Positions 1-56,807 are shown, numbered from the stretch's first letter. The stretch: DNA of 64,000 nucleotides from Cenococcum geophilum (GCA_050273025.1 CP158635.1:16554001-16618000); one strand, 5' to 3'. Numbers and translations: made by a program. Notes: generated by a model from the letters alone, not told the origin.

Positions 1-272
1 GGTATAAAGGGTAGTTCTTATAATTTAAGTCACTTATTTTAAGCTTTTTGGGGCTTCTAGTCAGCTCGTTAAGAAAGCGATTGCTAATACTACATAGAAG
101 CGTACGCGGGGCATATAATTTTATATTGTCGTCGCCTGCGCCACCGGTATAGATAGTAATAATGTCAAAGTTATAGCTCCTAGTCGCAAGTAAGTCTTTC
201 TTTATATTAAATTCTATAGCTGTAAACTTACCTATAGAATGTAGTAAAAATTGGATCTAGGTAGTTAACCAT
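1..272 (-). pseudogene. 5' part of a BTB/POZ-like gene (runs off the window edge), RIP-degraded
   Basis: ATG at 272(-): MVNYLDPIFTTFYR, a GTAAGT..TAG intron, then DIITIYTGGAGDDNIKLYAPRTLLCSISNRFLNEL, which resembles the BTB start pattern (itl.VG....f..h..lLc..S..F). Confidence 0.4.
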
Positions 273-370
273 TTTCGGGCTAATGTATATACTTTTAGGT
301 ATATTCTTGTAGCAGAATCCCTAAGGATCTCTATATTATTAACAAGCTAATAAAATAGGAATGGCTATAA

Positions 371-460
371 CCACCTCGCTTACTTACCTACTTACCCACT
401 TACCTACTTACCTGCCTCACCCACCTTATCTACCTTATCTACCTCACTCGCCTTACCTAC
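371..460 (+). repeat. Degenerate 8-9-bp tandem array (CCACCTCAY-like), copy 1 of 6
   Basis: ccacctcgc ttacttacc tacttacc cacttacc ... tgcctcacc caccttatc taccttatc tacctcact. Confidence 0.8.
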
Positions 461-1067
461 CCCTCTACCCGAGATAATAAGCACGGTAAGCTTTATAATT
501 TAGTTTCCGAAGCTTGTTTGACGGGCCTTATAAGGGTTAGCTCCTCCAAGCTGGTGAGGGTTTTCTCTTAGGTAGTCGCGGACCACGACTATGCCGCGTA
601 TAGGCTAGGATTGCACGAGCTGGGCCAGATTAGCTAGATCCCTTATAGCTAAGATTATCCCCTGTTTATAAGCGCAGACTTTATCTAACCTATATTATAT
701 TGACGCCGGCCCCCTGCCAAAGCTTTTCTATACTTTATGAAGTACCTCTACCGCATATCAGACGTGGTGGCGCAGAGTAGGACATTAAGGGAGAATCGGT
801 GATTGTGTACTATTACCTAACACTAAGCGACGCCCGTTAATCACACTATTTTATATTGCTAGACGTTTTTTAGCTGTTTATATCGTTGCTCCTATGCTAG
901 GGGTTTATAACATTTGTCTAATGACCTGTATTACTTATTTATAAAAATATTATAAGGGAAGCTCTTATTAAACAATTAAATACTTAAGGGGCAGCTACCG
1001 AATATATAACGCCACGCTCGGTACCCAACTAGCTCTTAGCAATTTTATCAACCTTTTGATTTACAGA

Positions 1068-1930
1068 ATGGCTTTCCAACCATCTTCTAATGATAGTAAT
1101 GCACCTACGTATGTTACCGATGTAGAGAATGTTATCAGTTATTAATATTAGCAAGTATTTTAATATCTCCTTGCCCCCCTAAATCCTCTAAGCGACCCCC
1201 TAACTTATTCGTTATGGGATATATCTATTAACGGCTTGATTACGCGGAACTTCTTATACCCTAACGTTAGTGGGAATAGTAAGGCATCTAGTTAAACTTC
1301 TAAAAATCAAGATTAAGAGTTATATGCTCCCACTCTATATATGGAAAGTCTGGAGGATGAGTTAGCGGTTGAAAGGGTATATATACCCCTATAAAGTGTT
1401 TTCCTTATTTAATAAGCGGTAACCGCAGAAGGAAAGGGTAGCCTTATAGTAAAGGGTGGAGAAACTAGAGAGTATAGAGGCGGAGCTTGCAGCTTTACGG
1501 GTATATATACCCTCCGAACTATTTTTTTAATTTGGTTAATAGAGTGGCAACTATAGAAACGAGGTAAAACCCTAAAGTAAAGGGTTAAAATAATAGAGGA
1601 CGCCATAAAACCATTAGTTAAGGTTATGTTTAGAATGCATCTTAAGGGAGATAAGGTATAATATATCCTCCTAGCGTAATATGAACTATCTAACCCAAAA
1701 GTCTAGGTTGCTGTAAGTCTTATTAAATGCTATAACAGTCTGTTAAAAGACAAGCGGTAAGTTTTGGTAAATAGTAGGTATTTGAGCAGCTATTATTCCT
1801 ATTGGATTATAGGACGCTAGGAGTTAGTCTTTAAATTGCTTTAGCGAATAAATAGTAGATAGGTTGTACTTGTATTAGCGACTATTGCTTTTACCTTAAG
1901 AGAATGCCTTAGTGGCAGCATTTAGTCCTA
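1068..1930 (+). pseudogene. Hypothetical protein pseudogene
   Basis: Frame MAFQPSSNDSNAPTYVTDVENVISY... is continuous if TAA/TAG are read as RIPed Gln/Trp codons; no family recognised. Confidence 0.35.
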
Positions 1931-1959
1931 ATAATCTATTTGAGGTATAAGAGTGTTAT

Positions 1960-7000: not shown

Positions 7001-8099
7001 CAGAAATGTTTAGCTAGTCATACCTTATATATAAGGCACAAGATGATTGGACAAAGGAAATAATTGCCGTACTAGTCAATAAAAGAAAACATTAACGACT
7101 ATTCCGCATCAGTAGGGCCCGGTAAGGCTTATAGCGTGCCTGAGTCCTTAGGAGCCCCCGCAGAAGCAATGTACGTTAGAGAGGATTCTAAAGGCATCCT
7201 ATTAGAGGCATAAAGGCTAGGAGGCTATTGAAAAGGAAGAGCAGTTTTCATTTTCTGTTGGAGCTAATGGAGTGTTACTTAACCTAACAGAATAAATCTA
7301 AGGTCGAGGAACTCTCTATTATATCTAAATTCAACCCTATCTGACGGCAAGTGTAATTATAGGCTAAGCCGGCTAACCCTTCCCCTTTTCGTACATATTA
7401 AAAGTAAGCTACTATTCTACTAAGACATCTAACACCCCCGTCCGATCTACGCATTCTAGAAAAGCTACAATCGGTAAATATTATAGCTCCTTATAGGGAA
7501 TGCAAGGATGCAGAGGCGGGCTTATATACTTATTACGGTTAACACACTACGTTTGGTAATCCGGGTTTACGGAGACACGTTACCCCACCTAGACGCTTTG
7601 CACGCGAGAAGGGCTGGTATCTTAGATCCTAGTAGTTTTATAGGCTTAGCTCGCAAATTAATAACGATAGAAAAAGTAGACTAAGAACTGGTATGCTATA
7701 TAATAACAGTGTTAAGCTAGCCTTTGTAAAGCCATAATAGGCCCACTCCTTAGGCCTTACCCAATTTAATAATATAAATACACCTACTATAATGACAGTA
7801 AAGAAACAACCCATATAACCAGTAATAAGAAAAACCTGCGGCTATTATAAATAAACGAACTTCGGAGACTCCGTAAAATAGATATTTTAAGTAGTGGCAG
7901 AACAGCTGAATATCACTACGGGCACGGAAATCAGAACTGTAATACCAGCAAGGACAAAAGTAGGATCTATGTAGTATTAGGCCTAATACTATAGAAATAG
8001 GGTAAATATTGTAAGTATAGGAGAATGCAAGGTAGGAAAAATTAGCGAGGCGTTGGGGCAATGGGGTAACTTGTGGTTGATATGCACCTCCAGCCGCCG

Positions 8100-8720
8100 G
8101 GGTATAATTCTCTATATACCCCTAAGTTTCCATCCTCCCCTTACGATGCTATTAAAATTTAGACATATCCGATTAGGAACTTCCCTCTCCGGAAGCCAAC
8201 GCCAGCTTCCCCGGCGAAGAGATAGTAAGCACTTCTTTCCTTTTCTTAGAGCTTAGTGCCGCAGAGGTGAAGCCGTGCTAAACTTGGTAGTTATTAAAGT
8301 AACCTATTAATCTTTGTTAAGGCGTTAAAGGTCTCTATACTTTCTCTTAAATAGGTATCCCCTCTTATAGGGGATTGCAATCGCCGAAGGCTTATGGGCA
8401 TTGCGGTGGCGTCCTACTGTATAAAAACAGGTACAAAAGAGAGTGTCTGTAGGGGTACTTGAGGTTATGCGAAGGACGCCACTGAGAACGCTAATATAGC
8501 CATAGCTATATTAGCGCTCTTAGTAGCGCCCTTTACTCTTAAACTAGGTTAACTTTATACCTCGCTGCAAACCTGTCCCTCTTCTTACTTAGAGAAATAC
8601 AAAGTTCGTTAAATATGTTTATGCCCCTAATCCCCCTAAACGACGGCGATCACCAAAAGGAGAATCCACTACTGCGATCACTGCTGCAATTTACCGACTA
8701 GTATATAAATAAACCACTAG
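8100..8720 (-). pseudogene. Paralogue A of an unknown gene containing a long palindrome
   Basis: 8148-8350 aligns by eye with 12439-12640, and 8400-8565 with 12737-12945; minus-strand read HGFTSAALSSKKRKEVLTISSPGKLALAS. Confidence 0.4.
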
Positions 8721-12399: not shown

Positions 12400-13800
12400 A
12401 GGCTAAGGGAATTTTAGAGCGGGAAGAGGGATAGGTTTGCTATTAAGATTCAGACACATCCGATCGAGAATTTCCCTCCTAGAAGCCAATATTAGTTTCC
12501 CTAGAGAAGAGATAGTAAGTACTTATTTCCTTTTTTTGGAGCTAAGTACCGCAGAGGTAAAACTATATTAGACTTAGTGGTTATTAAAGCGACCTATTGA
12601 TTTTTATTAAGGCGTAAAATATCTCTATACTTCCTCTTAAATAGGTATCTTATAGGTTAAAAGATCAATATAAAGTATCCCGAGCGTGGCTTACATAACT
12701 CTAAGGATGTTGTGGTCGCTCTCACAGGGGATTATATTACGGTGGCGTCCTACCGGGGAAGGGTTGATAGAAGTGTGGGAACGGTCCAAAAGTTAGTAGG
12801 CCACTACGCCCAACGCGGAGTCTCCGTAGGGATACTCGGTTGTGTAAAAGGCGCCACTAAGAGCGCTAATATAGCCATGGCTATATTAGCGCTCTTAGTG
12901 GCGCCTTCGCTCTTAACCGGGTTAACTCTCTACCTTACTACGTCGCAAGGGGAGGATATAGAGAATTGTGCCCTAGCGGCTAAAGGTGCACATAAATACA
13001 ACTAAAGGACTTCTCCTAAACGTATACATTCCATCTCTGCCAGAGTATATTATAGAGCAAATAACCAATATAGTATTCCTAGGCGGTTGGGTCCCTAAAG
13101 ACGGAGAGAACATTTCTAAGGTAGATAGGGCTTCTTTATATAAATTTAAAGAGTTTTCAGAGCCGGAGCTAGGAAAAGTTAAAGTAAGGCTATTATCCGC
13201 ATGATTACTAAGCGAAATTAACAAAGTTATAGGTTATTAAGATAATTGGTGCTTATTTTAGCCCATACTCTAAGCTCAGAAGTTATACAACTTAATATTT
13301 AGACTATCTCCGCTGGACAAGTAACCATAGTACTAAGATCCTGGCATAATTTGAGCATAATAGACGCTAGGTCCGGTATAAGAGCTAGTCTAATCGTATT
13401 CTATATATATAGGATAGAGGATCAGCTCTAGATGGTTTAGGGAAGCGTATAATAAAGCTTGACCAAGATTTCATAAAAGTGGTTCGCGGTGCGGTTTGGA
13501 CTAGTATATATATGGGTTTTAGAACCTTGACAGCCGGGCACTTTAGTAGGCCTACAGCTGCGGCGGCGATTAGGGCTTTAAGTGCTTGTTTGTACCCTTT
13601 TATTTAAACTAGTATATAGGTGGGTTTTAGAATCTTAATAACTAGGTACTTCGTTAGGCCTAAAGCTGCGGCGGCGCTTAGGACTTGGATTTCTTATATT
13701 TACCCTTTTATATACTTAGGAGACCTAAAGCTCTAAATAGTGGCTAGCCTTAAATCTCAAGAACTAAGTACTCGGATTAGCAAGCTATTTCCCCACCCTA
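12400..13800 (-). pseudogene. Paralogue B of an unknown gene containing the palindrome and a 36-aa N-terminal duplication
   Basis: Homologous to 8100-8565; includes ORF 12973-13224 and a 108-bp tandem duplication (13501-13608/13609-13716) reading SPKRRRSFRPNEVPSY / SPNRRRSCRPTKVPGC on the minus strand. Confidence 0.4.
12848..12907. repeat. Perfect 60-bp palindrome
   Basis: aaggcgccactaagagcgctaatatagcca|tggctatattagcgctcttagtggcgcctt; an imperfect copy lies at ~8469-8536. Confidence 0.95.
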
Positions 13801-15690: not shown

Positions 15691-16679
15691 TCTAATTAAA
15701 TAAGATTTATTACCCAACATCACTATAACCCTACTCGAGTAGTCGTTATTAGTAAGTCACCCTGTGTGACCAACATATACCTTAGATTAGATTAGCGAGT
15801 TCCGTTTACCGTTATAGCTTTAGAGAGAATTTAAATAGAGGAATCCCAACTAAAGTCCTAACTCTAGTTAAGATTCTCCACAGAGATTTAATTGGGGGTG
15901 CTAAAAGATATAGTGGGTATATAGTAGCAGACGCGAACGCTTTAAGCTAGAGGTAGGAGGAGTTGGAAAGAGGATTAATGGGATAGTAGGCAAAAGGAAG
16001 GAAACTCATCGGATATTTATACTTGCTTTCAGCCCTAATTAGACATATATAAACTCGCATTATCCAATCTGGTCTCACTGCACCCCGCTATATATACGGC
16101 ATATCGTGGATACCTGTCACTAAAGGGTGCACCTATACTCTAGTGGCTAGGCAGTAACCCGCATTTCAATTAGAGACATGCACAGTATACACAGCTAAAA
16201 ATCTGCTTTATATTAGGGTGTAAAAAAGGGAACCGCCTTTCGACTATTAGAGACATTTTAAATTAACGGCGTATTATATAAACTATGCCTAAGTCCGTGG
16301 AAAAATTTAACCAATCCGTGATAAGCTTATAAGCACAAAAATGAGGGGATTATAAGCGCCAATAGAATAGAAAGAGTGTATATTATAGGAGACTAGTGTA
16401 ACAAGGCAACCGGGGCAAAAAGCGGTAAAGATGACAAGGTAGGGCTAAATGACCAAATTAACGAGTAGGTTAGGACGAACTTGCATTCTCAACCTCGCAT
16501 TAGGTGTAATAAGTTCTATATACCATTAAATCTCCCTATCTTACCTTTAAAGGTTCATTAATATCTCACCATACCCTCCCAGAACCCAAGTCAACTTCCC
16601 TAAAGGGAGCATTCTAGGAAAGTGCATACTACGAGTCTAGATATAATAACTCATAAACATATTTGACGAAGGACACTAC

Positions 16680-17330
16680 GCTAAACTATTTCGAATTTTC
16701 AAAACGTGCTAAGGCCTTTACCAAAGCGTTTTCTACAATATAGGCAATAACCACTATATTTAGAGCTGTTCCACTTTATAATACAGTTATAGCAGAATGA
16801 ATAGCCTATAATAGTTAGACTTTTCTTAAAATCATCTAAATATATATAGGAACTTACCGCAAGGGGTAAGAATTTAATAAATAGCATTATTAGCTCTTCT
16901 CTAGCAGATTAAATAGTCAATTCTAAAAATCTTAGGTGCATTCTACACTCCTTAGTAGAAATGATCCCAGCGAGGGCAGTTAAACTGTTTAACCATTATC
17001 CCCAACTCATCCTTAGCTTCTAGGCCACTACTAAAAATACATTCGCCACAGACAATCTGTAATAAATTAGTTAGTCTGTTAAAATAGTCATTAGCTCTAA
17101 GGAGTTGCTTATACAGCAGTAGCGTTCCAAAACAAACATACGCGCGCTATCGTTCTCCCCTTTACTAAGAATATTTATACAAATAGCGCAATGCTTAGTA
17201 TTGTCAGTTAGATCAATAACCTGCTGCCACTAAATAGATATAGCGCTCGCTAAAGTTAAGTTAGCAGAGAGAGTTTTTTTAATATATTGATCCGATAACT
17301 CGACATTAAATACGACATCTACCCATAATT
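16680..17330 (-). pseudogene. Double RING-finger protein (putative E3 ligase) pseudogene
   Basis: Exon reads KHCAICINIL...ERYCC / IVCGECIF...FNCPRW and ILTPCG / (H)SFCYNCIIKW...YCLYCRKRF give two RING-type Cys patterns separated by GT-AG introns. Confidence 0.7.
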
Positions 17331-17766: not shown

Positions 17767-17775
17767 ATTCTTTAG

Positions 17776-19689: not shown

Positions 19690-21060
19690 AATGATGGATA
19701 TATATATAATGTTATAACTTATTCCAATTTCTTAAATATAAAACTTATTTGGATATTATACTTAATTATTTAAGGTCGTATTAGACCTTAGGAGAGAATT
19801 TAGAAACTGCCATAAGGCATAATATAACTGGAAGGGATAGGAGCGCTAAAATACGGAGCTAGAGTTAGGGATCCTTAGTTAAGGACATTACAATCAGCAG
19901 TGCGGAGAACGCCTAATAGTGAACCTCTTAACCCTTCCTTCCCTGGCCATCTCCTAGAGACTATTAACCACGCGCACGCCTATAACTATTAATAGCTACT
20001 ACTAACCGATACCAAAGCTACTTTAGGCCCCTGGAAATACCTATTATATTAAGGAAATACTTCCTTCTAAAAATTAATAGCCTTATATAATTACTCTCTT
20101 AAAATTACTACTTAACCTAGAAAGCAGATTTACTATAAAGGACCTAATTCATTAATGAATTGTAAAGATAATTACCTATATAAAGCATACTTCTTCCATT
20201 TCTGTAAATTTTACTAGTAATACCTAGTAAATACATCTTCCGCAATTACAGAATGGATATCCTTCGGGAACAGTTTTATAGTTACGATAATCCCAAGACA
20301 CGTTTTACCCTATATTATTAATTGGATACAACTTACTATAAAGGTGCTCTTAACGCAATAGAACCTAATATCTGCTGCGATTTATACTCCCGCCTCTACA
20401 GCGATGCGGACTAAAAAGATGCGCTTATACTTATAGACGATGCTATTTGTAATAAACTGCTTATAGGCATAACTAATAAGAAGATTGTATTAACCCTTAA
20501 CCTAATACCTAGTTAACAGCTTGCAACTTTAATTTTCTGGCTTAAAGAGTTATATTGTATAAGAGTCCTTAACTGTATAAGCAAGTGGGAGTTAGGAAGA
20601 GCAACTGCGATTCTTAAGGTGCGGAATCTAAGTCGTTATTATTATCCATATTTAGTTGCGGTCGATCCATTATTTAAACAATATAATAGCTGTAAAGATA
20701 TATATTCTCTAGGGGAAACTTAATAGATCGCGGATTGTAAGGTTTATACTATCTATTAGTAATGTAAGTCAGATAAGAATAAGTGCCCAATTTATACACC
20801 TCTAAAGAACATTATCTCTTATTAATCGTCGGATCACCTTATAGCAATTAAGCCTACACGTATAATGGTACTTAGCATTATCTCTTAGCCGAATAATTTA
20901 ATTCGTTACGCCCTGGTACTCTTTAAAGAGGACGGGCCGATGTATTAGTATAAGGTGTAGGTATTGGAAAGTTATTTTGGTAATATATTTGCAGATAATC
21001 TTAAAGTTTTTAACTCTCTTCCAGTTAATTCACGATTCTATAAAGTGTAGTCTATAAGTA
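19690..21060 (+). pseudogene. Tandem paralogue 1: unknown protein with a C-terminal RING-like Cys cluster
   Basis: 20030-21060 aligns with 21755-22790; C-terminal read SCKDIYSLGE..IADC...KCPI(C)TP. Confidence 0.5.
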
Positions 21061-21482: not shown

Positions 21483-22800
21483 ATGGTATATAAGAGAAAA
21501 TACGATTTAGATTTAGATTCTGTGGTGAGTTTCGCAGTAGAGCGGATAACTACTGCAGTTCTAGAATATCCTTAGGCTAATGTATAACTATATAATTATC
21601 GGGATATAGATACGCGTTTAATTATCGCGAAGATATTCCTGGTCTCTATAGAGTATATCCGCTAGTATATACTTGAACCTATTTAGATATATATAATAAC
21701 ATCACAACTAGCAGTCCTAGCCGTCGACCTCGCTTACGCCAATGCTTTAGGTACCTAGAAATACCCATTACACCAATAAAATGCTCCCCTCTGAAAATTG
21801 AGGGCCTTACGCAATTGTTTCCTCGGAATTACCACTTACTCTAAAAAGTAGATTTACTATAAAAGACCTAACTTATTAGTTAATCGCTAAGATATTAAAG
21901 CATACTTCTTCTATTTCTATGGATTTTACAAGTAACACCTAATAAATATATCTTCACTAGCTCCAGAATAGATATCCTTAAAGAAGAGTTTTACAGCTGC
22001 GATAACCCAAATACGCGCTTTCGCCTATATTATCAATTAAATGCAGTTTATCGTAGGGATGTCCTTAGGGATATGGAGCATAATGCTTGCTATAATTTAT
22101 ACTCCCGTCTCTACACTAATTTAGACAAAAAAGAGGCACTTGCACTTATGGATAATGCTACTCGCACTAAATTATTTACGCGGATGGCTAATAATAAGGC
22201 TAGGATATCAGCCTTTAACCTAATAAACAACCAGAATTTCTTAACTACATTGCGCTGGCTTGAAGAGCCACTTTATATAGGACTCTTAAAGGATATGGGC
22301 CAGGCAGAGTTAGAAAGAGCAATTTCAATCATAACTATCCGCAATAAAAGAGGAGGGAAGCAGCTAGCTCCTTCGCCATTAATTGCGACCGGTTTATCAT
22401 CTAAAATATACGCTTAGTGCAAAGATATTTATAGCATAGGGGAATCTATATGGTCTGCAGACTGTTACATTTATTCCTTCTATAAGCGGTGCAGACCTAA
22501 TAACGATAAGAATGAGTGTCCCGTCTGTACACCTCCGAAAAATGTTATCCTTTACCAGTTATAGAAACACCTTAAAGCACAGACCGGCAGAATAATAATA
22601 ATCGGCCTTATATCTTGGCCAATATCCTTAATTCGCTACGTCCTAGTAACCTTTAAAGGCAACGGGCAGGCGTATTGGTATAAGGTGCAGGAAATTGAAT
22701 TTTGTATAGGCAGGGAGAATTTTAGGGCATCGCTAGATAAGTTTAGAGCTGTTCCAATTAATTTATAATTCCGTTAGGTGCAATCTACAAACAAATAAGC
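21483..22800 (+). pseudogene. Tandem paralogue 2: unknown protein with a C-terminal RING-like Cys cluster
   Basis: Contains ORF 22073-22417, followed by CKDIYSIGESIWSADC...KRC...NECPVCTPP and RYVLVTFKGNGQAYWYKVQEIE. Confidence 0.55.
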
Positions 22801-30345: not shown

Positions 30346-30409
30346 AGACATTATTTTAGAGAGCTAGACAATAATGAGATATAAATTAAAGGGAGGAATA
30401 CGATTGACG

Positions 30410-31397: not shown

Positions 31398-32899
31398 TTT
31401 ATCGCTTGTCGTATTAAGATAGGGTATAACTTACTAGATTTACCGCGTCAAGCTGTATATATAAAGCACGCTCTTATCTTTAGTCATTGTATTATTTAGG
31501 CCAGACTGCCGCAAAAATGAGTTATACTAGGTATAGAGATAGTAAGTATAGGAGCCACGAGGATAGCTAGTGGGGTTAAGTAGGGTTATAGTATAGATCT
31601 ATGCCTATTAAGAGCGAATAGGAATGTATATATATAGCGTAAACGACATTCTATAGGCTAGATAATTGAAAGATAGACCTATCCTAAGAATGCTATGGCT
31701 GCAGTATAAATGGACCTTTTTTATGTATTACCAAGTTGTGATAATAAATTAAGCAGCTCTAGGAAGCGATGCCGAAATATAAAGTAGTAGAAGAGTTGTA
31801 GGTTATATGATTGTGTTTTTTAGGTATAGCTGCAGCAAAAACTTATTTAGTAGATTTAAAGTAAAAAATATATCGTAACTACCTATATACTACACGAATA
31901 ATTAAAAGCCCCTTTTATAGCCTATCCTAAGTTGGCCTAATTAGAAAGCCTACCGGGCGCTACTCCATTATAGCTTAAGGCCGGTATATACTAAGGGTCT
32001 TACTACTTTTCGTTATAAAAGGTTTTAAAGGTTACAAATTATGCCGACTTAAAACCTAAATTGGTACTCTTTACTAACGTAATACCTTAGTAATAGTAAG
32101 GTATAAGCCTAGGTATATGATTGCTATTACCTAAGTGATCTAGTTAGCTGTTCCCTTAATTTTGGTTATAAAGTGCCTTTTATCATTCTTCGAAAAGATT
32201 GGAGGATATTAGTATTGTAAAGCGACACTGTTCTTTTAACTTAGACGAATTACTAGATAAACCAGCGTGGTCTAAACAGGTGTATTTAAACAAGAGGATC
32301 CTTACGTAAAACTATTATATAGTAGAGTATTACATAACTAGACGCCCCTTACAGCTAGGCGTTCCCCTTTATTAATAGTTCTCTTAATCCACTCGCGAGT
32401 TTCTTAAAACTGTATAGATGTCGAAACCATTGTCCCGCGTTGTTTAAGTAGTACGTCTTAGCTTAATCGGCTGTAATCTAGATTGACGCTTTAAGACGCT
32501 TTAAGAATAAGGAGGAAAGGAAGGTCGTAAGCTATAATACTACGTTTTAATAGTTAAAGGAATAACAAATGCTATCGTACTAAGTTTGGACTTTCTCTGT
32601 AACCTTAGGGCTAGCATTATAAATGGGATTGTGGTAGTCTTAATAAGGGTCGTCCAGGCTAGTGATAAAACGCCTAAGACCGGCGGCCGACAGCGGGAGG
32701 AAAAACTACGAAAGTAGGATGCTTCGAGGCATTGTATGATAAATTTACTGTTGCTAAAGTAAGAGACGTCTATAAGGAGATTGTTTACACAATCGGTGCA
32801 TTTATAAATCTCCTAAGTTAGAGAGACAGCGCGTCTTTAAACCATGACGTAGTAAGGTGGCTTTGTTAAGCCACCTAGGGTCAGCCGCGCTGCGCCACA

Positions 32900-33301
32900 C
32901 CCTTTAAGCTAAACTTTTAATTAACATATTCCTTACCCCGGTAGAGAGTTTCTATACTTATAATATTAGATCCTTACTCCTCCCCACTATTATTATAGTC
33001 CTTTTTATACATAAATTAGATCATTCTCTTAACGGTGCCGAAATTAAACTCGTTAATACTTATAATATTAGTCGCCGCCTCCTACCCATTAGTTAGTTCC
33101 TAGTTAGGGTTAATTCCACTAGATATTTAGTCAGCTTTTACCTGAAAGTCTTTATTATAGGCGACTATAAGTATGGGAGATTGGGTGCATATAATCACTT
33201 TATAGACTTTAAACTCTAGTCCTTGGCATATAAGTTTTAAGTCGCTATTTCTCACTATCTATAAGCTGCGCTAAGCTGAGTGGAATACTTTTGGATAACA
33301 T
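32900..33301 (-). pseudogene. BTB/POZ domain protein pseudogene (3' end not resolved)
   Basis: MLSKSIPLSLAQLIDSEK.SDLKLICQGLEFKV(H)KVIICTQSPIL...DFQ / EAATNIISINEFNFGTVKRMI.FMYKKDY. Confidence 0.8.
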
Positions 33302-34109
33302 ATTTCGTTAGTTTTCTTTCCTGGTTCTAGTTTCGACTGCGTCTTAAGTAATGTTTAAGGGAGTAATTTGGGTCCATTCCTTCTCTTAAATATAGGTAAC
33401 TAAATTAAAGAAGGAAGCTTGGAGAGGGATTATAGATTAAGCAATTACTCTAATTATATATAGCTGAAAGGGTGTTAACCTGCTTTCGTTTAAGTGGCTC
33501 TAATAAAAGAAATGTAAATATAGAGTGATTTCTATTACGTTTGGAGATCCTTTAGGGTCTACGGTTCTTTTACTACCCTCTATTACCCTCTATAAGGAAT
33601 GGGCTTAGAGAATTAGGTGTAACATGTGACGGCCTAAGGAACTTAGTAAATATAACCTAGTAAGGCCCTTTAAAACAATACGGCCTAAATTAAAGAGTGG
33701 AGTCCAGTCTGGGAATAAGTTATGTTTTATAGAATACGCTAGAAACAATCCTAAGCGGGGCCTAAACTAGACTTATGTAACTCTTAAGTATGGGAACCTA
33801 GAAGTCGGCTATATTTACCTAGTTATAATTTAGCGACGTTTCGGCTAAGCCTACTATCTTAGGCACCGCTGAATTTCGGTTACTAATAGGGTCGCTAAAG
33901 AGATCGAATTAAAAGCGTGGCGAAGTACAAGAATAAAAGGGGTTCTATTTTAAGTTAATAACGCATCCTTAGTTATACTGTTTTTAGCTCTTCTACGATT
34001 ATAACATTCACTTATAACGTTGGCTTTAATCTTATAGGCCTAAGTGCTTAGAGACCATTGTTTAGTCTTGCTACCTAGTATAGCTATGTTGGATATTACT
34101 TAGGAACAA

Positions 34110-35672: not shown

Positions 35673-35909
35673 TATGTTATATTTATAGAATGTTGTCTAA
35701 AGTAGTTGAGCCGCTACCTTACTTTAATGTTTACCAGCTAATATAGGGTAAAGTATCTATAAGTAGATAAGATATAATACGGGATTAGCGTAGACCGGTA
35801 CCGAAAGTTAAGGACTTAGCCAATAAAGGAGTAAGCCTTGGCAAAAAGGCAATGAGATAGTTTAGTTGGGGTGTTTTGCTCCCCGGCATAAGGTAACAGC
35901 GAACTACTA

Positions 35910-36392
35910 CAGTAATGTACACGACTAGCTTCCACCCCCCCTCTAAAAAAAAATATTATTTCGCTTCGGTACGCGGGCTTGCTAGCAATTATAGCGAATG
36001 CCCATACTTAGCTATAAGAACTTTACTTCTAGCAAACTTCGCGATTGGCCTTCCTCTATAGTATCATAATCTTTATTAAATATCGTGAGGTTTCCACCAG
36101 TACGATATCACTAAATTTTATCGGCAATTGCAGGAACAGCTTTATATTCGCGTTTTGGCGGCATAGTAGGGGGGCGCGCAGTTAAAGGGGAGGGGAGGGC
36201 GCGTACGTCCTTAGTTTGGTTCTCCTGGCTAACTAAGGCGATTCTCCAGGGCAACCAAAAAGGTCCTTACGTGCAGGCATATGCGTTCGCTACAATTACT
36301 ATATACAGTTAGTGGCGATTTAGCGAGCCCGCGTACCAAAGCGAAATAATTTTTTTTTTTAGAGGGGTGGAAGCTGGTCGTGCACATCACTA
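35910..36392. mobile_element. Tc1/mariner-type MITE (~75-bp TIRs, TA TSD)
   Basis: Left ta|cagtaatgtacacgactagcttccacccc...gcgggcttgcta; right tagcgagcccgcg...ggggtggaagctggtcgtgcacatcacta|ta; no transposase inside; 483 bp. Confidence 0.85.
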
Positions 36393-36449
36393 TACTCTAA
36401 GTATACGTTATAGTATAATGCAGGATTAAGGATATTTGCTATATAAGCG

Positions 36450-38229: not shown

Positions 38230-38660
38230 TACCTTCTACCGCTATTCTTCCTAGCTAGAAGGTATATAAATAAGGGCTAATTGAGACGCCTTTTGGTATT
38301 AGGGGCCTTCGCAGCCTTTTAAGAGGCGCTGATTTAGTAAGTGTTCCCTTTAACGGGTTCTTTTCAGCCGTACTAGGGCTGAAGTCTAATAATATCTTTT
38401 GGGCTAGCGAATGACGACGCTACTATATAAATGGTTAGCTTTATATACAGGAGGGTGAGAAAGTATATTACCACTTCTTCTACAGGAGGAGGCTAGGAGG
38501 TACGTAGCGTGGAAGTATACACATAGTATTTACCCTGCCTATAAATAAGAATATATATATTCGCACCGTACTGCGCGCCAATTTCATGGGCTCTCCGAAG
38601 GAAATTGTTCCGACGTTTACGGAACGATTCCTGGACTACTCTTTTCTTTTCGTCTGCCAT
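38230..38660 (-). pseudogene. MADS-box (SRF-type) mini-gene 1
   Basis: MADEKKRVVQESFRKRRNNFLRRAHEIGAQYGANIYILIYRQGKYYVYTSTLRTS(W)PPPVEEV, then an intron. Confidence 0.8.
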
Positions 38661-38918
38661 AATTTTTGGGGTTAATGCTAGGATTAGGCACTTGCTTCTT
38701 TATAAATTTTTGCCTGCCTAGCCTAGGACGGCTTTACACCCTATACCTGGGTATAAGCTAAGGAAACCAGATACTGCTGCCCTTAGGAAATTGCGGGCAT
38801 TATCTCTTACACTTCGCTGCCTTTAGATTTAGCTTATAATGTCTTTAATGCTATATTAAGTAATGCTACATTTAAGTTCTACTCCGCGCCGCGTAAAGGT
38901 GAAAAAATGCGACTTATA

Positions 38919-40650
38919 ATGAACGTTACCACATAGTATGCGGCTGTAGTAGTGGGCGGCTTTACGCTTCTGCTGCTATACCGCGTAATCTCTCGTATTA
39001 TACGTTTTCTCTATACCTTATCTACCTTCTTCCTTTTAAAATATCTTGTTTATCCTTATATTTGGCGAGGAAATACTATACCTAGAAGGCCGACCTGAAT
39101 TTTTCTTTTAAGCGTCACCTTATACGTTATTACCAACGTTTTATATATAACTATTGGAGTTAGATCCTTTGCTCAGATCGGAACACGCGCTGGTATAATG
39201 TCCCTTGCTAATATAATCCCGGTCATAGCGGGATCGCTTAGCATAGTCGCTAATTACCTTGGCGTTTCCGTGCAAACGTAATATAAAATCCATGCATGTA
39301 TAGGAACAGTCACTTTTCTACAAGGGTTAGTCTATACGGTCACTTCATTTATAAATCGACAACCATTTATGCTTAATACATCGGGAATTTGGGGGCTTGT
39401 TGTACGTTTAGCCCGCCTCTAAACTATCGCCCGAAAGCAAATTGACTTTTAACGCCAGGGAGGCTTATTATTGACATTAATATACCTTCTTTCTACTCAT
39501 TTTATTCAGAGGGCTGTTTACGAATTTTTCTTTTAGTTCTATACGCTTCTCTCTAAGATCTTTATCTTCGCTCTTTGGCTTTATATTAAGGGGAACCAGA
39601 CAGCAGAATTATATCTACTTATTAGGGCATCTGTATGGGCTTCCTCCATAGCCTTAAAATGGATCTTCTGCTTATACTAGAACTTTTCTTAAAATAGATC
39701 TCAAACCAAAGCAGAAGTAATATAAGAAAGTGGAGCCCTTTATATCTTAGTTTATATACCTAGACCCTAAAAAGTAAAAGCTGGCCAATATATTTACCTT
39801 TCTATTCCTAAAGCTAGCTTCTAGTCTATCTTCCAACGTTACCCTTTTGTAATATTAGGCTAGGATAGTAACTCAGATCGATTAAAAATACATTTACTTA
39901 TTAAACCCCGGCGAGGGTTTACTAGAAAGCTCACGAGTTATACAGATACTTTAATATCGGCATTTATTGACGGGCCATACGGGGTTAGATATGATTTTAG
40001 CAATTTTGGAACGGTACTAATGTTCATAACTGGTATTGGAGTTGCTAGCCACCTGGTATATATTAATAAGCTTATCCAAGGCTATAGACGTTGCGAAGTT
40101 AAAACGAGGCGGATAGTACTTATATAGGAGCTAGATGCAGATGGTACATTTGCCTTAGGTTAGACTGGATTAAGTGCTAATACTATTAAACTAGGTCAGC
40201 AATTATAAGTAAAACCATTTATAAATCAATTACTAATAGATAATACTAAGGAATACGTAAGTAGCACTCCGTATATATAAGAGCAAACCTAAGTAAGTCG
40301 ATAGAATATTAAGGTTAAGATATATCTTCCTTGGATAGAGGAACCTGAAAAAGAATATAGTAAGAGAATTAAGGCAATACAAGGGAGGCTGGATATTGCA
40401 AATATTCTAAAAGAGAAATTAGCAGTACTTAATGGAAAAACAGTAATATTAGGTAGCAAGTCCACGTTAAGCCTATGCTAAAGCTGCTAATTTTGTGTCT
40501 AGTTAGTGCAAGAATAGATATTTGGGATAAAATTCGGGATTATGTTTCTTATAACCTTTATTAGGATTTATGCCTGGTTGACTTGGAATTTCAGCCTCTA
40601 AATAGCCGTTCAAAACAGCTCGATTTCTCTTGTAAAGGGCTCCCTAAGTA
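38919..40650 (+). pseudogene. Ferric reductase / NADPH-oxidase-like membrane flavoprotein pseudogene
   Basis: TM region with RAGIMSLAN, KIHACIG; FAD-binding KAGQYIYLSIPKASF(W)SIFQR(H)PF; FIDGPYG; NAD-binding FGTVLMFITGIGVASHL; KTRRIVLI(W); several introns. Confidence 0.85.
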
Positions 40651-43987: not shown

Positions 43988-44502
43988 ATTGCCACGATTT
44001 GCAAGAAGCATAGGAAATCTCTATAGGTCTTTATTTATAGTGCCTTAACATAAACCATATTTTAGTTTAGCGTATTCTTTACAGCTAGTCATTTTGACGC
44101 ATTAAACTAACCCACTTAATCCGCCTAATCTACCTAATCTACCTAATCTACCCGATCTACCTAAGCCATCTAAGCCACCTAGTCCTTTCGATCCTTCTAG
44201 GTAGTAATGCCTACGCTTTCCTATTGCATCTTACGCTAATCGATATAGATTTTAAGGCGGTAGGAAAGTACCGCTAGGGAACGAGTCCTTTTTCCGTTAA
44301 TGCCTCCATGGCAAGGCGTACTTAGTGAGGCTCAATCTATTAAATACTAAAGAATTATAATAGATCGGCGAAGAATGACTAAGGTAAGCCCAGTGATATT
44401 AGCGGTTGGGTTAGCATTTTCTTATTAGTTTAACCTAACCTAACCGCTGATATTACTAGGTAGACCTCGCGACTCTAAGCTGAAGCTAAATTGTGCCCTA
44501 CT
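43988..44502 (+). repeat. Direct repeat copy 1 (upstream cassette with 9-bp array and hAT-type insertion)
   Basis: Aligns with 46203-46642 apart from a ~76-bp insertion; 9-bp array copy 4 at ~44107-44181. Confidence 0.9.
44391..44458. mobile_element. 68-bp hAT-type mini-element with 8-bp TSD
   Basis: TIRs cagtgatattagcggttgggttag / ctaacctaaccgctgatattacta; TSD ggtaagcc (44383-90) and ggtagacc (44459-66); empty site ggtaggcc at 46598-46605. Confidence 0.8.
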
Positions 44503-46202: not shown

Positions 46203-46642
46203 ATTGCTATAATTTGTAAAAAGCATAGAAAATCTCTATAGGTCTTCATTCACAGTGCCTTAACATTAATTACGTTTTGGCTTAGCGTATTCTTTATAGC
46301 TAGTCATTTTAGCGCGTTAAACTAACTTATCTAATCTACCTAATCTACCTAATCTACCTAATCTACCTAATTTACCTAAGCTACCTAAGCTACCTAGTCC
46401 TTTTAATCCTTCTAAGTAGTAATACCTGCGCTTTCTTATTACGCCTCACGCTAATCAATATGGATTTTAAGACGGTGGGATAGTACCGCTAAGGAACGAG
46501 TCTTTTTTCCGTTAACGCCTCTATAGTAAGGCGTACTTAGTGAGGCTTAATCTATTAAATACTAAAGAACTATAATGGATCGGCGAAGAATAACTGAGGT
46601 AGGCCTTAGCGACTCTAAGCTAAAGCTAAATCGTGCCCTACT
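46203..46642 (+). repeat. Direct repeat copy 2 (contains 9-bp array copy 5 at ~46322-46399)
   Basis: Aligns with 43988-44502; differences are almost all C/T or G/A. Confidence 0.9.
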
Positions 46643-48129: not shown

Positions 48130-49550
48130 TATTACCTACCTTTACTATATTACCTATGCTTAATTCTGCTATCAATGCCTCCGGCGGGGTTCTGCCGCGA
48201 ATACTCCTAAGATATCTACTCGTATGCTTTCCTTTCTTCGCTATTTGATTTGAAATTGGCTGTTTCAGTAACTAGTGGCTAGAAGTTTAGCTATACTCAT
48301 AAGCGTATCTAGATGCACCAGGCCCTATACGTTAATTCTTATCTTTACCACCTCTATATTTAACCTTTAAGCCTCCTTCTTTTGTCCTTGCTTATAGAAT
48401 ATAAATGCTAAGCTACTTATACTGCTAATAGTGTCTAAATAGTCATTACTAAAAATCTCTCTCTTTATCTTAACTACTTATTTCTACAGCTCCTCCGCTT
48501 CTAGAAGTTGGTTCTTTATATAGTATTTAAAACTTAGCTCTTTTATACTTTTTAGAGTATCGGGATGCTGTAGGCCTAGAATTCTCTTTCTTATCTCTAT
48601 TACTTAAGTTTCCAGCTTATTGGCTTCCGTTCGCCGTTTTTAATAATAATAGACTTCCGCTAAGACGGCCATTATACTTAATATCTATAAATAGTATTGG
48701 CCTAATACCCTATTACTAGTCTCCAGTAACTATAGCAGTAGCTCTTTAGTATTGGTTAGCCGTTTCTACTCAATATAGATATAAGCTAGGTAGATTTTGC
48801 TTTCTAAAGTATCCCTATATTCCGGCCCTCTTAGTTTCCCAATTATCTCTACTAGCCGCACCTAGTACTTTTTAGCCTCTATAATTCGGCCGGTTTTGAA
48901 ATATATCTCTACTAGAAGAGAAATAAGCTCTATCTTTTCTTTCATTCTATTGTACTCTGCTATATCTTTTTTATAAACTCTATAATACTAACGCTAGCAT
49001 ACCTTTAGTAAGCAAGCTTTATATAACCAGTTAATACAACACTATAGCTAGACGATATTATCTCCGCTAGGCAACTTCCCGAAGTATATATAGTAGTGTT
49101 CTTTAGTGCCAATTCCAGTAACATCTTAGATAAGATACTTCTTAGGTATCTAGTCGAAATCGGAGGCCTTTATAGATATTAAAATAAAAGACGGCCCAAA
49201 AATAGATAAAAGGGTCTTAAAGATAACACCTAAGCGTTAATAAAACTTAAGTTTAAGAGTTACACGTTAGGGATAAAGATATATTTAACTTAGCTAGATA
49301 TAAAGTGAATTAATAAATCCTTAAGGTTTAAAGCCTTTATAGGCGGCAGATATAATATATTAATAGTATCGATTTCAGCTATAGCCTAGCCGGGGTTGGC
49401 TCCTCGATAAAGCTTACGTACTGCCTTAAGTATACCTAGCTCGACTAATACTAGGGATAATCTTGTATTTAAATACGCAGGGCTTTTATAAATAAATTAG
49501 TGAACCTACCGCAGCATTTATAAAATTTAGCAGTCTGCGTTTTTAGGTCA
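48130..49550 (-). pseudogene. TPR-repeat (kinesin-light-chain type) protein pseudogene
   Basis: Repeated ~42-aa units: LRGPEYRDTLES, RVLGQYYL.IL, KRILGLQHPDTLKS, EIFSNDYLDTISS, GLVHLDTLMS; the N-terminal domain was not identified. Confidence 0.75.
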
Positions 49551-49651: not shown

Positions 49652-50026
49652 TTATCTCTTTATTCCCTTATACTTTAGCCTAAAATCAGCCGGAGTTCTT
49701 TTTTTGGGTATTAGGAAGCTTTAATTCTGCATTTCATTAGTATATACTATATTAAGAGGGTAAGTAAGGCATATAATATACTCTTTAGACGGCGGCTAGG
49801 AAGGCTTATCTCTAAATAAATACAAGTGGTATCTCCCACTATTATATACAAGAAGGTAGACATACGCATTACTTATCTTTCCTAACTCGTCCGCCTTTCT
49901 AAAAAGTGTTTCTCTTTGTCAGCGGATCGCCTCCCTGCTAATATACTTATTTAAATTAAATAAGCCAGTCCCTTCTCCCTAAGTCTCATTTTCTTCTATA
50001 GTCCCGCTGTTATTACTAGCTTTTAT
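49652..50026 (-). pseudogene. MADS-box (SRF-type) mini-gene 2
   Basis: EAIR(R)QRETLFRKADELGKISNAYVYLLVYNSGRYHLYLFRDKPS(W)PPSKEYI, intron, ...IPKKRTPADF. Confidence 0.75.
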
Positions 50027-50291: not shown

Positions 50292-52650
50292 ATGAAGATA
50301 GCAATAAATCTTATTGTGGGTCTTCTGCTTCTTCTTGTCCCTTACTTCTTCTTAGGTTATAATAACGTTAAAGTAACGTTATTTACGGCCATAATAATTG
50401 CACGGGCTCCTAGGTGGTAAAATACTACTATGAAAAAAACATCTTTAACACTACCTGGCGACTTTGCTGCTCATTCTTTGCTATAGATTGTAACCCAAGA
50501 AACACAGACCAATAAGTTGACTTCCGAAGATGGTATTTATACTGTTGCTAGCTTATTAGACAGTTCTATAGATTTTCAAAGCTCTTCTATCCTCCCTAAG
50601 AGCACTAGCCTCGTAGGGCTTTAAACCGTCACAACCTCTTCTAATATTGGACCCTATTATTCTTATATAAGCACTAGAATAGACTTGAGTTTAGTATCTA
50701 CTACCTTACCATTAATAGTAACAATAATTACAAATATATATAGACTTCTACTTTTAAAGAGCTATTTAGTCCTCTCTATAACCACTAGTCTTATAGGACC
50801 TTAAAGCAGTACTATAATTTATATCGAGGTCGAATCTTAGCTTTCCCTTACTAGTAGTAGGATAGGTATAACTCTAACACCTACTAACCTTAAATGGATA
50901 GTGATGAGTATAGCAAATCTAAACGGATTATTACGTTTAGAAAGCTTTTTAATTCTCTTAGAGGGCACTAGCTTTATTGTCTCTTAAAGCCTCAGTATAA
51001 CTTATATAAAAGCCTTATCCTAGCTCTCTCTTATACGGACTAGGAATGACTTAACTTTAATATCCATTAATTCCGTAGGGGTAATTATAACTACTGCAGA
51101 AATTTTAAATAGTGTTTAAACTTTAAACAGTCTTCCGATTCCCTTAAAGAGTAATAGCCCTATAAAACCTTAAAGCGCTACTGTAGCTTATACTAAAGCC
51201 AATCCCTAGACCTCTCTTATAAGCACTATGACGGATCTAACTTTAAAATCCGTTAACTCCCTAGGGACGGTTATAACTATTACACAACCCTCTAACGGAC
51301 TATTGCGCTCTATAGCACTGCCGTTTATATCGGATTTAAGCTAGATATCTAAGTTAATATACACTTCTCCAGATTCCCTTAATGGGGCTTCCTAGTCTGT
51401 AAGCTTAATTCCAAGTTTAAACAGATATTTAAGTATTTCAACCACCCTTTCTAAATCCACATAGCTGCTCTCTTCCCTATTAACACAGCCTGTAAACGGG
51501 GAGAGCCTTATAATAGCTAGCAATACTTTTACGTTTAGCTATACCGTACCTACCCTAAATTCTATAAACCATGTATTTATTTTAGCCCCTACTAATACCA
51601 TAGCCATCTTAGTTCTAACTCGCAACATACTTATCTTAGTTCCTATTAGTACTAAAACCGTCTTAGTTCTTACTAGCACTATATTTATTTTAGTTTCTAC
51701 TAGCACTATATCTACCTTAGTTCCTACTAGCACTATATCCATTTTAATTCCTACTAGGGTTACATCTTCCTTAGTTTCTAATAGCATCGTATCTATCTTA
51801 ATTCTTACCAGCACTATATCCATTTTAGTTCTAACCAATACTATATCCATCTTAAATCCTATAAGCTCTGCTATTGGACTTTTATATATATCTCTAGATC
51901 CTACGGCCTCTATTTCTGCCTCTATCTCTTCTTTTTATGTTATAAAAGTTATAGCTACTATACATGCGCTTATACGGATAATTCTAACTTCCCTAATAAC
52001 GCTATGGTCACTTGGACAATTTTTAAGCGCTTCAGACATCGCTCCTAGTTCCTTAATTTCCTTAAGTTCCGCAATTCCAGCTAAAGAAATAGCTGCGGTT
52101 TTACTACTAGGTTTAACTAGACAGGACTAGATGGACTGGAGCAGCACGACAAATTTTATACTGGCTACCTTAATAATAGATTTAGGGTTCTTAAGTGCTT
52201 AGCTTCTTAGTATCTTTCCTATATTAACTTCGGAAATTATTCTATTAAGTATAGCTATAGGTGGGAGCTACTCCGGAGCTTAGACAAGCTCGTAGATCTT
52301 AGATAAACCTAGTGCGCTAGTTACTTTTTTCCGTACTATTGTTTCCTCTAATAATAAGTATTACACTACTTCTACTACTACGCAGACACAAGTGCCAAAT
52401 GACGGCACTCTATTTAGTAATTCTTTATAGAGTTATGTAGTAAAGGCTAAGAGTATTAGGGTTAGTCTTAGTACAATCGCTAGGATACTAGCCTTCGCAG
52501 CCGCGATTGTGTTACTGCTAAGGCAATATAGGCGGCGCTAACAGGGCACAATAAATATAAGAAGGCCGGTTATTTCTCGCCCTTTTCCAATCTAGGGATA
52601 CGTTTTAGCTCTATTATTTAACACTATATAATATATACGGGAGTTTAGAT
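50292..52650 (+). pseudogene. Large Ser/Thr-rich (mucin-like) type I membrane protein pseudogene
   Basis: N-terminal hydrophobic segment MKIAINLIVGLLLLLV; long S/T-rich body; 10-aa repeats; TM STIARILAFAAAIVLLL followed by RQYRRR and VISRPFP. Confidence 0.65.
51570..51865 (+). repeat. 30-bp coding tandem repeat (~10 units)
   Basis: ttagttcctactagcactatatccatt-type units, also visible as the repetitive antisense ORF 51539-51850. Confidence 0.85.
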
Positions 52651-53904: not shown

Positions 53905-54008
53905 ATATAGGGGGTAAGGATGGTGTAGGGGGTAAGGATGATATAGGGGATGGGGGTAGTATAGGGGGTAAGAATGATATAGGGGATAGGGGTGGTACAA
54001 GGGATAAA
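53905..54008 (+). repeat. 18-bp G-rich tandem repeat (~5-6 units), probably inside a degraded gene
   Basis: ggggtaaggatggtgtag ggggtaaggatgatatag gggatgggggtagtatag ggggtaagaatgatatag. Confidence 0.8.
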
Positions 54009-54329: not shown

Positions 54330-54790
54330 AAAAACAAAAGGCATATCTATTATTGAGAGTAACTTCCTTAAAATTCAAAGTTCCCCTATCTTCTCCCCAG
54401 ATCGACTACGAAAGGCCGTAAACGACCTATTGTCTGAATAGCACAACGGCCCCCCCCTATTAATCTAGATTACAGAGGATAAGGAATAGGAAGTTGAAGA
54501 AATCCTAGTAGTTAAAAAGGACCGTAATATCTTAAAATACCGTGCAAGCTAGGTAGGCCATGATGAAGACCTAGAATAGTATCCTGTATCTGATTTTAAG
54601 TATTCCCCCTATAAGCTATGGGATTTCCACCTAGCCTAACTAGACCTCCCCAGACCACCACGCAAACTAGAAAACTGGATTAAATGCTAGGAAGAAGGGT
54701 TGGATAATTACGATAATTTAGACGATAATAAGGAGCTCGGACAACACCTAAGGGCAGGCTTTTTTAAGAGGGGGGGGTGATATAACTATA
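54330..54790 (+). mobile_element. Ty3/gypsy (chromovirus) 3' remnant: integrase tail, chromodomain, PPT and LTR start
   Basis: PIFSPDRLRKAVNDLL..., KE(W)EVEEILVVKKDRNILKYRAS(W)VGHDEDLE(W)YPVSDFKYSPYKLWDFH; PPT aagaggggggggtga ending at 54780, then tataac (TG>TA). Confidence 0.85.
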
Positions 54791-54799
54791 CTAGGGCGC

Positions 54800-54861
54800 A
54801 AGGCAGATAAGGCAGATGAGGTAGGTAAGGTAGGTGAGGTAGGTAAGGTAGATAAGGTAGT
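54800..54861 (-). repeat. 9-bp tandem array, copy 6 of 6 (reverse orientation)
   Basis: Reverse complement reads ctaccttat ctaccttac ctacctcac ctaccttac ctacctcat ctgccttat ctgccttgc. Confidence 0.8.
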
Positions 54862-54964
54862 TAAATATATATAGTAATAGTGTTATTAGTTTCTAGTGCC
54901 TTAGATATATTTAGATAAACGTTAAAGATTTAATTATATTACCTGCGTAGGATTTTCAATCCTA

Positions 54965-56682
54965 ATGCCACATTCCTTTTTTATATGTTTAATTCTGATA
55001 TAATTTGCAGGATTAAGAAAATAATACTGTTTAACGACTTCTTTAATCTCGTTTGAGATCGAGCGAACACAATAGAAGTCTTAATATTAATATTTCGCCA
55101 TTGGCTATTAAGTCTTTCTCTTCCTTTAATCCTCCGCTTAATCTCATGACGTTGTTATACTCTACCCGTAAACATCGATATGTTACACTTAGACGGCTTC
55201 TATAAACTCTATAAGGTTATAAGTATCTTAGACTATAAGAATCTCACGCTTGCGTTATATATAAAAGGTAAGGATAGCACGGTAAACAGACTAATACTCG
55301 CGTTAGAGGCATATAGGGAGAGAAAGAACCCTATGCGTTACTTAAGACCCTACTTTACTAATCCCAAGGGCCTTCTTAACGCAATAGCCGAGAGCAACGT
55401 ATATATATTAGGTTCTCGCGCTACAGACTACTTTATGCCTGGCTCTACTAAGCCACACTCTAATTTCGACTTCTATGTCTAAGCAGATATTAAAGGCATT
55501 TTTAGAATGCTTAGTGAGATGAAGTTAAGCCATAGTGTACAGTGGACCTCTCCAATGTGGTCGCTAGTCCGAAAATTAAGCTTCCAAAAATTTAAGATAG
55601 ATATAAGAGTGTTGCAACATATATCTAAGTCTAAAGAATTTAATGCCCTAATAGAAAAGTATCCTTAAGAAAAGGTTCATTCTATAGAATATAGCGAGGG
55701 CCTAAATATATTCGCTGGGTATACCTTTAATAGAACCGCGTTCTTATTTAACCAAGATATATTTAGTTAGAACAACTATTGGGATAGAGACGTAGATGAA
55801 ATAGACTTACCTAATTCTGTTCATAAGACTACGGAAGATAAGGAGCATGACGCTTACATTTAGTTGCGGCAGTTCTTCGCCAATCTTTACTATTATCGAT
55901 ATAACTATAACCTACAAGGATTACACAAGACGATCTGGGTCTTACATAATAGGAAGGGATTATGGCATCTAGGGACGTCACTAACCTTTTCCTTTTAGCA
56001 CGAACATGACTATAATAGGCTAGACAAATACGACCGAGGCAGTAAAACACTTAAGGTAATTAAAGGAAAGAGCGTAAAGAGTGGGGTTTATATGCAATTA
56101 ATGTTTAACACAGCCGTCCCTTAGTTAACTCCTTTCTATAACATCCTCTAATTTTATTTAAGTTAAGTTTAATGTTTTATTTCTAGGCTTAGAGCGGTAT
56201 ATTTGTACCCCAAACCCTCTTAGCGGAAGGAGGCATATACTTAGTTATGTAGAGTGGAGACCCTATATATCCAGGCGGCCAGAGAGAAGTATAAGGTTTG
56301 AGGATATCAATATGTGAAGAATTAGGCGGCGCCAGAACTCCGCAGAATAGGGGATAATAAATCCCTATTTATACCATTTCCGCGGAGAGAAGGATGGTCG
56401 GCTAAAATACTAAAGCAGTTCCGGGATAATTTGCAGGTCATAACTTAGTGGCAGAAGGAGACCCGGCTCGATCCTCTGCTAGGATTATATTAGATACTCC
56501 TAGAAAACCGTCAGGGGGTAGACATTAAGGCCATATGGTAGAATACCAGAAATTCGGGATACACATGCGACAGCCAATATCTCCTTTAGCAATTCTACAC
56601 TAACTGTCTTAATAAATATAGCATCTTACCTAAGCTCGGTATTATAGACTCCCATATCTAAGCTAAGTATTATAAAGAATAA
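54965..56682 (+). pseudogene. Putative nucleotidyltransferase-fold protein pseudogene
   Basis: ORF 55180-55482 ends VYI(S)GSRATDYFMPGSTKPHS(D)FDFYV (GS...DxD). The same frame continues to MQLM..., ILNFYLS.V.CFIS.LRAVYLYP, AAREKYKV(R)GYQY. The start codon is uncertain. Confidence 0.5.
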
Positions 56683-56807
56683 TAGTCATAGGGCCTTAAG
56701 CACCCCTAAAGCTACTTATAAGACTGTAGAGCCTCTTATAATTCGATAGAGTTCTTATTCTTAATCTTCTATTTAATATTAAAGTATTAGAGCTTGGGTC
56801 TATCTAT

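Follow-up and report, generated by a model that had tools for sequence, protein, structure and literature searches.

The question raised by this locus of Cenococcum geophilum is why a long run of ordinary-looking genes should have been inactivated throughout by the C-to-T and G-to-A changes that repeat-induced point mutation (RIP) causes. A preliminary description, made from a stretch of 64,000 nt (here called the window; G000:C1:16,554,001-16,618,000, in an assembly of 178 Mb in 7 contigs), had placed the mutated run at positions 1 to 56,800 and proposed a dead Starship-like giant element, one of the fungal transposons mobilised by a DUF3435 tyrosine recombinase, the captain. In the window itself, it had recognised neither a captain, nor a DUF3723 gene, nor a terminus. 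The analysis presented here gives a probability of about 0.93 that the window is the middle of a dead Starship, probably of the Phoenix family, which multiplied in this genome and was then killed by RIP. The element is a real, well-bounded and dead Starship: a DUF3435 captain, a DUF3723 gene and sharp TTAC termini all lie just outside the window. Positions beyond the window are given as the C1 position minus 16,554,000. The RIP, the genes of the host flanks and the captain's fungal homologues point to a filamentous ascomycete as host.

The inactivation by RIP with reading frames largely kept was borne out over the whole window, in which TpA/ApT was 1.23-1.81 and the composite RIP index was positive in 64 of 64 1-kb bins. 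The alignment to a second full-length copy (copy B; the copy containing the window is copy A) gave 4,506 transitions, a single transversion and no gap in positions 1-56,800. Among the changes with an unchanged neighbour, CpA accounted for 72%, CpG for 14%, CpT for 11% and CpC for 3%. Since the changes are almost solely transitions without gaps, the frames were kept but filled with stops; stop-free frames of at least 150 codons number 2 in the 56.8 kb, whereas stretches of 24 kb and 12 kb of host flank hold 16 and 4, respectively.

Both limits of the preliminary description were found to be wrong. The composite index was positive in 75 of 75 2-kb bins from -48 kb to 102 kb and negative in all bins of host DNA on either side (11/11 left, 6/6 right), where long open frames return, so that the mutated block is about 149 kb and not 57 kb. 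The right limit of 56,800 is merely the start of a nested copia retrotransposon with long terminal repeats (LTRs). The whole element is 143,030 bp (-43,730 to 99,299), beginning 43.7 kb before the window and stopping 35.3 kb after it. It was inserted at one point of a 5.6-kb host copia retrotransposon, splitting the copia reading frame. The 201-bp direct repeats at the outer edges of the RIP block were considered as the element's own termini and rejected, being the LTR pair of the host copia, which occurs uninterrupted at many other loci.

Six loci with both ends were identified in the genome, each of 143-174 kb and with different flanks, four of them on one chromosome (C1). Together these full-length copies amount to about 0.91 Mb, or 0.5% of the genome. 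Of the 56,800 bases, copies B and D cover all, copy C 56,127 and copy E, which is without about 28-37.6 kb of the window, 31,272. The genes had been called mostly non-repetitive, which holds inside the window and fails genome-wide; the proposal that the block was once multi-copy and was inactivated as a unit is upheld by full-length copies mutated along their whole length. Copies A and B give a single alignment over the entire element (143,064 columns), in which there are 11,259 transitions, 1 transversion and one gap, of 34 nt; A differs from D in 1-56,800 by 4,838 transitions and 6 transversions. Copy E is older, with 0.35-0.4% transversions. The nested copia (56,808-62,309) and an insert of about 170 bp are common to A and B and absent from C and D, copy D showing the empty site of the copia; in three of four other samples, a contig skips the 170-bp insert. 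The copies are also mosaics: at 46-56 kb, C follows E (1 transversion in 3,043 columns and 0 in 5,000, compared to 55 in 4,935 and 5 in 5,000 for A-C), and, judged by transversions, D does the same from -39 to -29 kb. The element also occurs outside this assembly, a 184-kb metagenome contig (L095) carrying a collinear copy that is just as mutated (longest piece 12.4 kb, with 1,300 transitions and 118 transversions).

The existence of full-length copies refutes leakage of RIP from neighbouring repeats into single-copy host genes. Nested repeats within the block and a repeat-rich genome would be in keeping with such leakage; however, the block itself is multi-copy, the transitions between A and B are spread evenly along the element (each of the 28 full 5-kb bins holds 340-452), and the signal falls within about 1 kb of the outer ends of the host copia. 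We assign this explanation practically no probability.

The ends of the element were read on the strand of the captain, where the order is TTAC, 10 nt and an 11-bp arm, then captain and cargo, and finally the inverted arm, one base and TTAC. The 11-bp inverted repeat is flush with the 3' end and, at the 5' end, set 10 nt inwards; both mismatches between the arms of copy A are transitions. GTAAT is present on both sides of copy A in the host copia, and a single GTAAT is present at the insertion point in both uninterrupted copies of the copia that were read (2/2), which represent the empty site as found in paralogous copia copies of the same genome and not at the same locus of other isolates. 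At the six paired copies, all ends (12/12) are immediately bordered on the outside by GTAA[T/A], which reads TTAC on the strand of the captain. Among further 3' ends, 14 loci were fetched (one being copy H) and 13 aligned, with the repeat in 10 of 13; L099 did not align and was excluded from the count. Of the further 5' ends, 4/6 carry the repeat. For copy A, the host flank of the left junction was covered in all four of the other samples and the element side by short pieces with about 8-12% differing letters; neither a contig bridging the junction nor an empty-site join of the host flanks was among the matches listed for these four samples. The three features by which Starships are defined in PMC9156397 are all present in the element.

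These termini also decide the standing of an ordinary segmental duplication of an accessory region, later struck by RIP. It would account for the closest copies being collinear from end to end, nested transposons included, and for their mosaic make-up. However, the similarity ends at the same base at six loci in unrelated flanks, with TTAC at each junction, a copia reading frame is split by the insertion, and a captain stands at the 5' end. The exact termini common to the copies refute segmental duplication, which we consider very improbable.

Several further observations were made at the ends. The first 11 bases at the 3' end of copy D (L023, near C1:25,047,691) differ by transversions from those of the other copies; a variant 3' end partly similar to it was found at L098, and a contig of run X5 has the same four letters there. 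Read on the strand of the captain, five of the six captain-end flanks (copies A-E and H) have a C eleven bases before the junction, possibly an additional target preference in this very small sample. The host copia has ATTAC as its own 5-bp target duplication (L006:2,566-2,570, L014:7,229-7,233), the same word as the Starship repeat, probably by chance.

The preliminary description had proposed to search the flanks for DUF3435 and DUF3723, and both were found there, the DUF3723 gene 0.9 kb past the right edge of the window and the captain near the element's 5' end. A full-length match to DUF3435 (PF11917) was obtained on the minus strand at 96,656-98,143 (E 6e-54). The domain is located 1,156 bp from the 5' end and points inwards. 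In all six full-length copies, the domain span carries 17-36 stops. Five positions of the catalytic motif, chosen by eye from an alignment of homologues and guided by the R-K-H-R-H-Y scheme of tyrosine recombinases, were checked; none of the six copies has all of them intact, and every position is preserved in one copy or more. Six homologue identifiers were looked up in Table S4 of PMC11162782; two are absent, and the four found all belong to fam01 (family 1, Phoenix), at 29-34% identity. By sequence comparison, the captain is therefore probably a member of the Phoenix family. Insertions have broken up a seventh close captain, located at C4:17.6 Mb. Genome-wide, at least 165 DUF3435 and at least 86 DUF3723 matches were detected, nearly all full of stops; these matches indicate many other dead Starship lineages in this genome. 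One DUF3435 gene (C3:7,969,165-7,970,527), with just one stop in its matched span, is possibly intact.

The order of events can be approached from the copies themselves. Three lines of evidence suggest that the copies split before most of the RIP, while they were still largely unmutated. Firstly, 156 sites are derived only in A and B and 215 only in A and D; the ratio of 0.73, compared to about 0.67 from the per-copy rates, gives no clear excess of RIP changes common to A and B. Secondly, a beta-binomial fit to copies A-D gave, by extrapolation, a pre-split density of CpA plus TpG of about 124 per kb, compared to 129-132 in the host flanks and 48-71 today. Thirdly, P0017, a metagenomic DUF3723 protein free of stops, was compared with five copies and showed 72-78% identity to each. 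At 293 of 329 residues, it matches at least one of these copies, and at 35 of the remaining 36 the difference can be reached by transitions alone, which gives identity or transition-only agreement at 328 of 329 aligned residues; wherever a codon is a stop in some copy, P0017 has Q, R or W (16/16). An unmutated form of at least the DUF3723 gene thus exists. A search for an intact copy of the element by way of P0017 led to two metagenome loci, both RIP-mutated.

Several points weigh against this reading. Eight codons of the captain span, two of them inside a probable intron, are stops in all six copies; saturation of RIP can explain these, and some earlier RIP is still possible. The search for an intact captain of this lineage returned 14 proteins, the best being 42% identical, and none was an intact captain of this lineage. 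The Phoenix call is based on four classified homologues of only 29-34% identity. The residual pre-split TpA of 84 per kb (about 70 when double counting is allowed for) exceeds the host value of 57, so that some older RIP is possible. Part of this would suit a Starship that had died before its last copies were made, the captain of another element moving it in trans: some captain stops are common to all six copies, the residual TpA is higher than in the host, and the genome holds many other DUF3435 genes, including the one with a single stop at C3:7.97 Mb. Set against this are the absence of a clear excess of common changes in A and B, the pre-split CpA plus TpG density near the host level and the five catalytic positions, each preserved in one copy or another. 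Movement in trans is considered unlikely, yet it is the rival with the most in its favour.

For a Starship that multiplied before it was mutated, the following course can be proposed. As published for Hephaestus, the captain would cut the element out and insert it at a short TTAC-type site. The element would have multiplied while still largely intact, gaining smaller transposons between jumps, and the copies would have exchanged segments with one another. Because four near-identical copies are located on one chromosome, the build-up of copies would most simply fall in a clonal phase. Several copies in one nucleus would then have drawn RIP in one or more sexual cycles, each copy being struck independently and captain and cargo being killed together. 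Copies may have been gained by excision from one chromatid after replication or by reassortment in crosses, between which the sequence cannot tell. We regard it as an evenly balanced proposition that a 143-kb Starship gained copies within one genome during vegetative growth, with no round of RIP in between; it is based on the four C1 copies with almost no transversions, the nested insertions between jumps and the exchange of segments.

The cargo was scanned with Pfam, stops being read as X, in 85 segments inside 1-56,800 chosen by a stop-density screen, rather than in all six frames, and in 23 segments of the element outside the window. The features are collected in Table 1. Inside 1-56,800, Bys1, PDDEXK_12, BTB, one MADS box, the ferric reductase FRE (by way of its FAD-binding part) and TPR are supported at E < 1e-4, and weaker matches point to another MADS box and to a RING finger. 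The count of about 25 genes given previously was not confirmed by these six supported and two weaker matches among the 85 segments, but is plausible; several long frames without a Pfam match look like genes, and a kinase-like frame near 34.3-35.0 kb is, like several other long frames, without a match. The expected cargo was found in part: ferric reductase and TPR were matched, while HeLo, like NACHT, NB-ARC and patatin, gave no match in the segments scanned. In the scanned segments upstream of the TPR gene, no NACHT, NB-ARC or HeLo part was found for it. Searching for frames free of stops common to all copies recovered few long cargo frames, as RIP has nearly saturated the codons that can become stops. 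The flanks were also used to train a purine/pyrimidine coding model, which lacked power and did not pick up the frame of the captain. DUF3723 and FRE are known auxiliary genes of Starships according to the gene list in PMC9156397. The 17-bp tandem array at the right edge of the window is part of the element.

Table 1. Features of the element, its copies and its surroundings. Positions without a contig name are counted from the first base of the window.
Feature	Position	Strand	Evidence or remark
Starship copy A, middle part	1-64,000	-	ends, captain and copies compared
RIP-mutated cargo region of the preliminary description	1-56,807		RIP indices, copy alignments
RING-finger-like fragment	16,654-16,908	-	E 0.006, below Pfam cut-off
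Bys1-family gene, stop-broken	24,776-25,180	+	E 3e-12
PD-(D/E)XK nuclease (PDDEXK_12)	29,661-30,164	+	E 2e-11
BTB/POZ gene	32,902-33,450	-	E 4e-5
MADS-box (SRF-TF) gene, head to head with ferric reductase	38,376-38,822	-	E 9e-5, below Pfam cut-off
Ferric reductase (FRE)	38,787-40,277	+	Ferric_reduct E 1e-3 (below cut-off), FAD_binding_8 E 7e-8
TPR_10/TPR_12 repeats	48,328-49,149	-	E 3e-19
Second MADS-box (SRF-TF) fragment, weak	49,830-49,915	-	E 0.004
Nested copia retrotransposon	56,808-62,309	+	272-bp LTRs, 5-bp target duplication TCTAT, RVT_2 E 6e-26
17-bp tandem array, just upstream of DUF3723 gene	63,029-64,000		shared by copies B, C, D, E and L095; length varies
DUF3723 gene	C1:16,618,932-16,619,942 (from 64,932)	+	E 2.5e-52
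Captain DUF3435 domain	C1:16,650,656-16,652,143	-	only Pfam match, E 4.8e-55
Blm10/PA200-like gene	near -22 kb		Pfam
DXD glycosyltransferase	79-81 kb		Pfam
Ankyrin repeats	90 kb		Pfam
Two nucleoside deoxyribosyltransferase-like genes and a C2H2 finger	outside window		Pfam
Split host copia halves	C1, about 16,506,570-16,510,269 and 16,653,300-16,655,228		flank the element, outside window
Copy A	C1:16,510,270-16,653,299		143,030 bp
Copy B	C1:1.93-2.08 Mb		143,064 bp
Copy C	C1:11.24-11.40 Mb		151,616 bp
Copy D	C1:24.89-25.05 Mb		153,656 bp
Copy E	C2:10.12-10.26 Mb		143,955 bp
Copy H	C4:9.93-10.10 Mb		173,532 bp; ends read, middle not fetched

Smaller repeats are also present in the window. The stretch 28,453-32,922 is a nested repeat, the two outer parts of which recur, with a shorter middle linking them, at a minimum of four other loci; the additional middle piece here holds the PD-(D/E)XK nuclease. 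Related stretches with inverted ends at 7,978-8,640 and 12,438-13,000, containing near-perfect 60-bp palindromes (8,472-8,533 and 12,848-12,907), are probably a small fold-back element or one resembling a miniature inverted-repeat transposable element, present twice. A 490-bp element at 35,908-36,394 has inverted ends of about 75 bp and a related stretch 36 kb before the window start. Two pairs of tandem paralogues were identified in the cargo, at 20,021-20,969 and 21,745-22,699 (67% alike) and at 43,988-44,390 and 46,203-46,605 (85% alike), and the stretch 1,250-1,864 has an inverted paralogue 14 kb before the window start. At 51,574-51,861, a 27-bp repeat, corresponding to a 9-residue unit on the minus strand, lies inside a long frame without a Pfam match.

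Among described Starships, Phoenix, with its type in Macrophomina phaseolina (PMC9156397, PMC11162782), is similar in its 5' DUF3435 captain with family 1 homologues, its DUF3723 and FRE cargo, its insertion into other transposons, which is common for the Phoenix family according to PMC11162782, and its several copies per genome (0-3 for Phoenix, and up to 0-5 for Defiant; PMC9156397 Table 1). The repeat core is TTAC here, compared to TTTACA in Phoenix, and the terminal repeat of the element had no match in the part of the PMC11162782 supplement that was searched. The element differs from Phoenix by at least six full-length copies of 143-174 kb and many further ends in one genome, all dead, by a captain with only 29-34% identity to the classified homologues, and by a cargo that includes Blm10-like and Bys1 genes. 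The Tangerine family is limited to Lecanoromycetes (10.1101/2025.11.25.690456) and gives no reason to move the Phoenix call.

Hephaestus of Paecilomyces variotii (10.1101/2022.08.04.502770) shares the TTAC repeat at the ends. It was shown there that the captain moves such elements, that excision is traceless, and that two copies in a laboratory cross draw RIP over the whole element with loss of cargo function; at the present locus, the same outcome is recorded in nature. In contrast to our element, Hephaestus is active and belongs to family 2, while the classified homologues here are of family 1. Its target is TTAC(N7)A, of which the TTAC core is present here and the A occurs at one of four junctions read.

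Derelict Starships (PMC9156397, PMC11162782) are likewise non-functional, RIP-mutated copies, and the term is the one recommended in PMC11162782. However, the Derelict regions of M. phaseolina are without a captain, whereas the captain, both ends and the empty target can still be read here. The opposite state is represented by the weak RIP of Starship regions in Verticillium (PMC12289983). In PMC12910237, on a repeat-expanded, RIP-rich fungal genome, the word Starship was found only in the reference list. No account of this element, nor of six full-length RIP-killed copies of one Starship, was found in the literature searched, which left subscription journals mostly outside.

Elements of this kind, and their death by RIP, are already known, and multi-copy and RIP-killed Starships are in print. 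New is an unusually clean natural record of amplification followed by RIP, with copy number and size above the ordinary. The pair of copies A and B is a ready data set on the sequence context and strand bias of RIP over very long repeats, and the order of the nested insertions, together with the small amount of RIP common to the copies, bears on how a giant cut-and-paste element gains copies. RIP-dead Starships escape protein-based annotation and can form a real part of fungal genome growth. Starships are termed low-copy in PMC11162782; if amplification during vegetative growth is true, these elements, usually seen as low-copy and cut-and-paste, could amplify like ordinary selfish transposons, and a single family could contribute nearly a megabase before a sexual cycle allows RIP to kill every copy at once.

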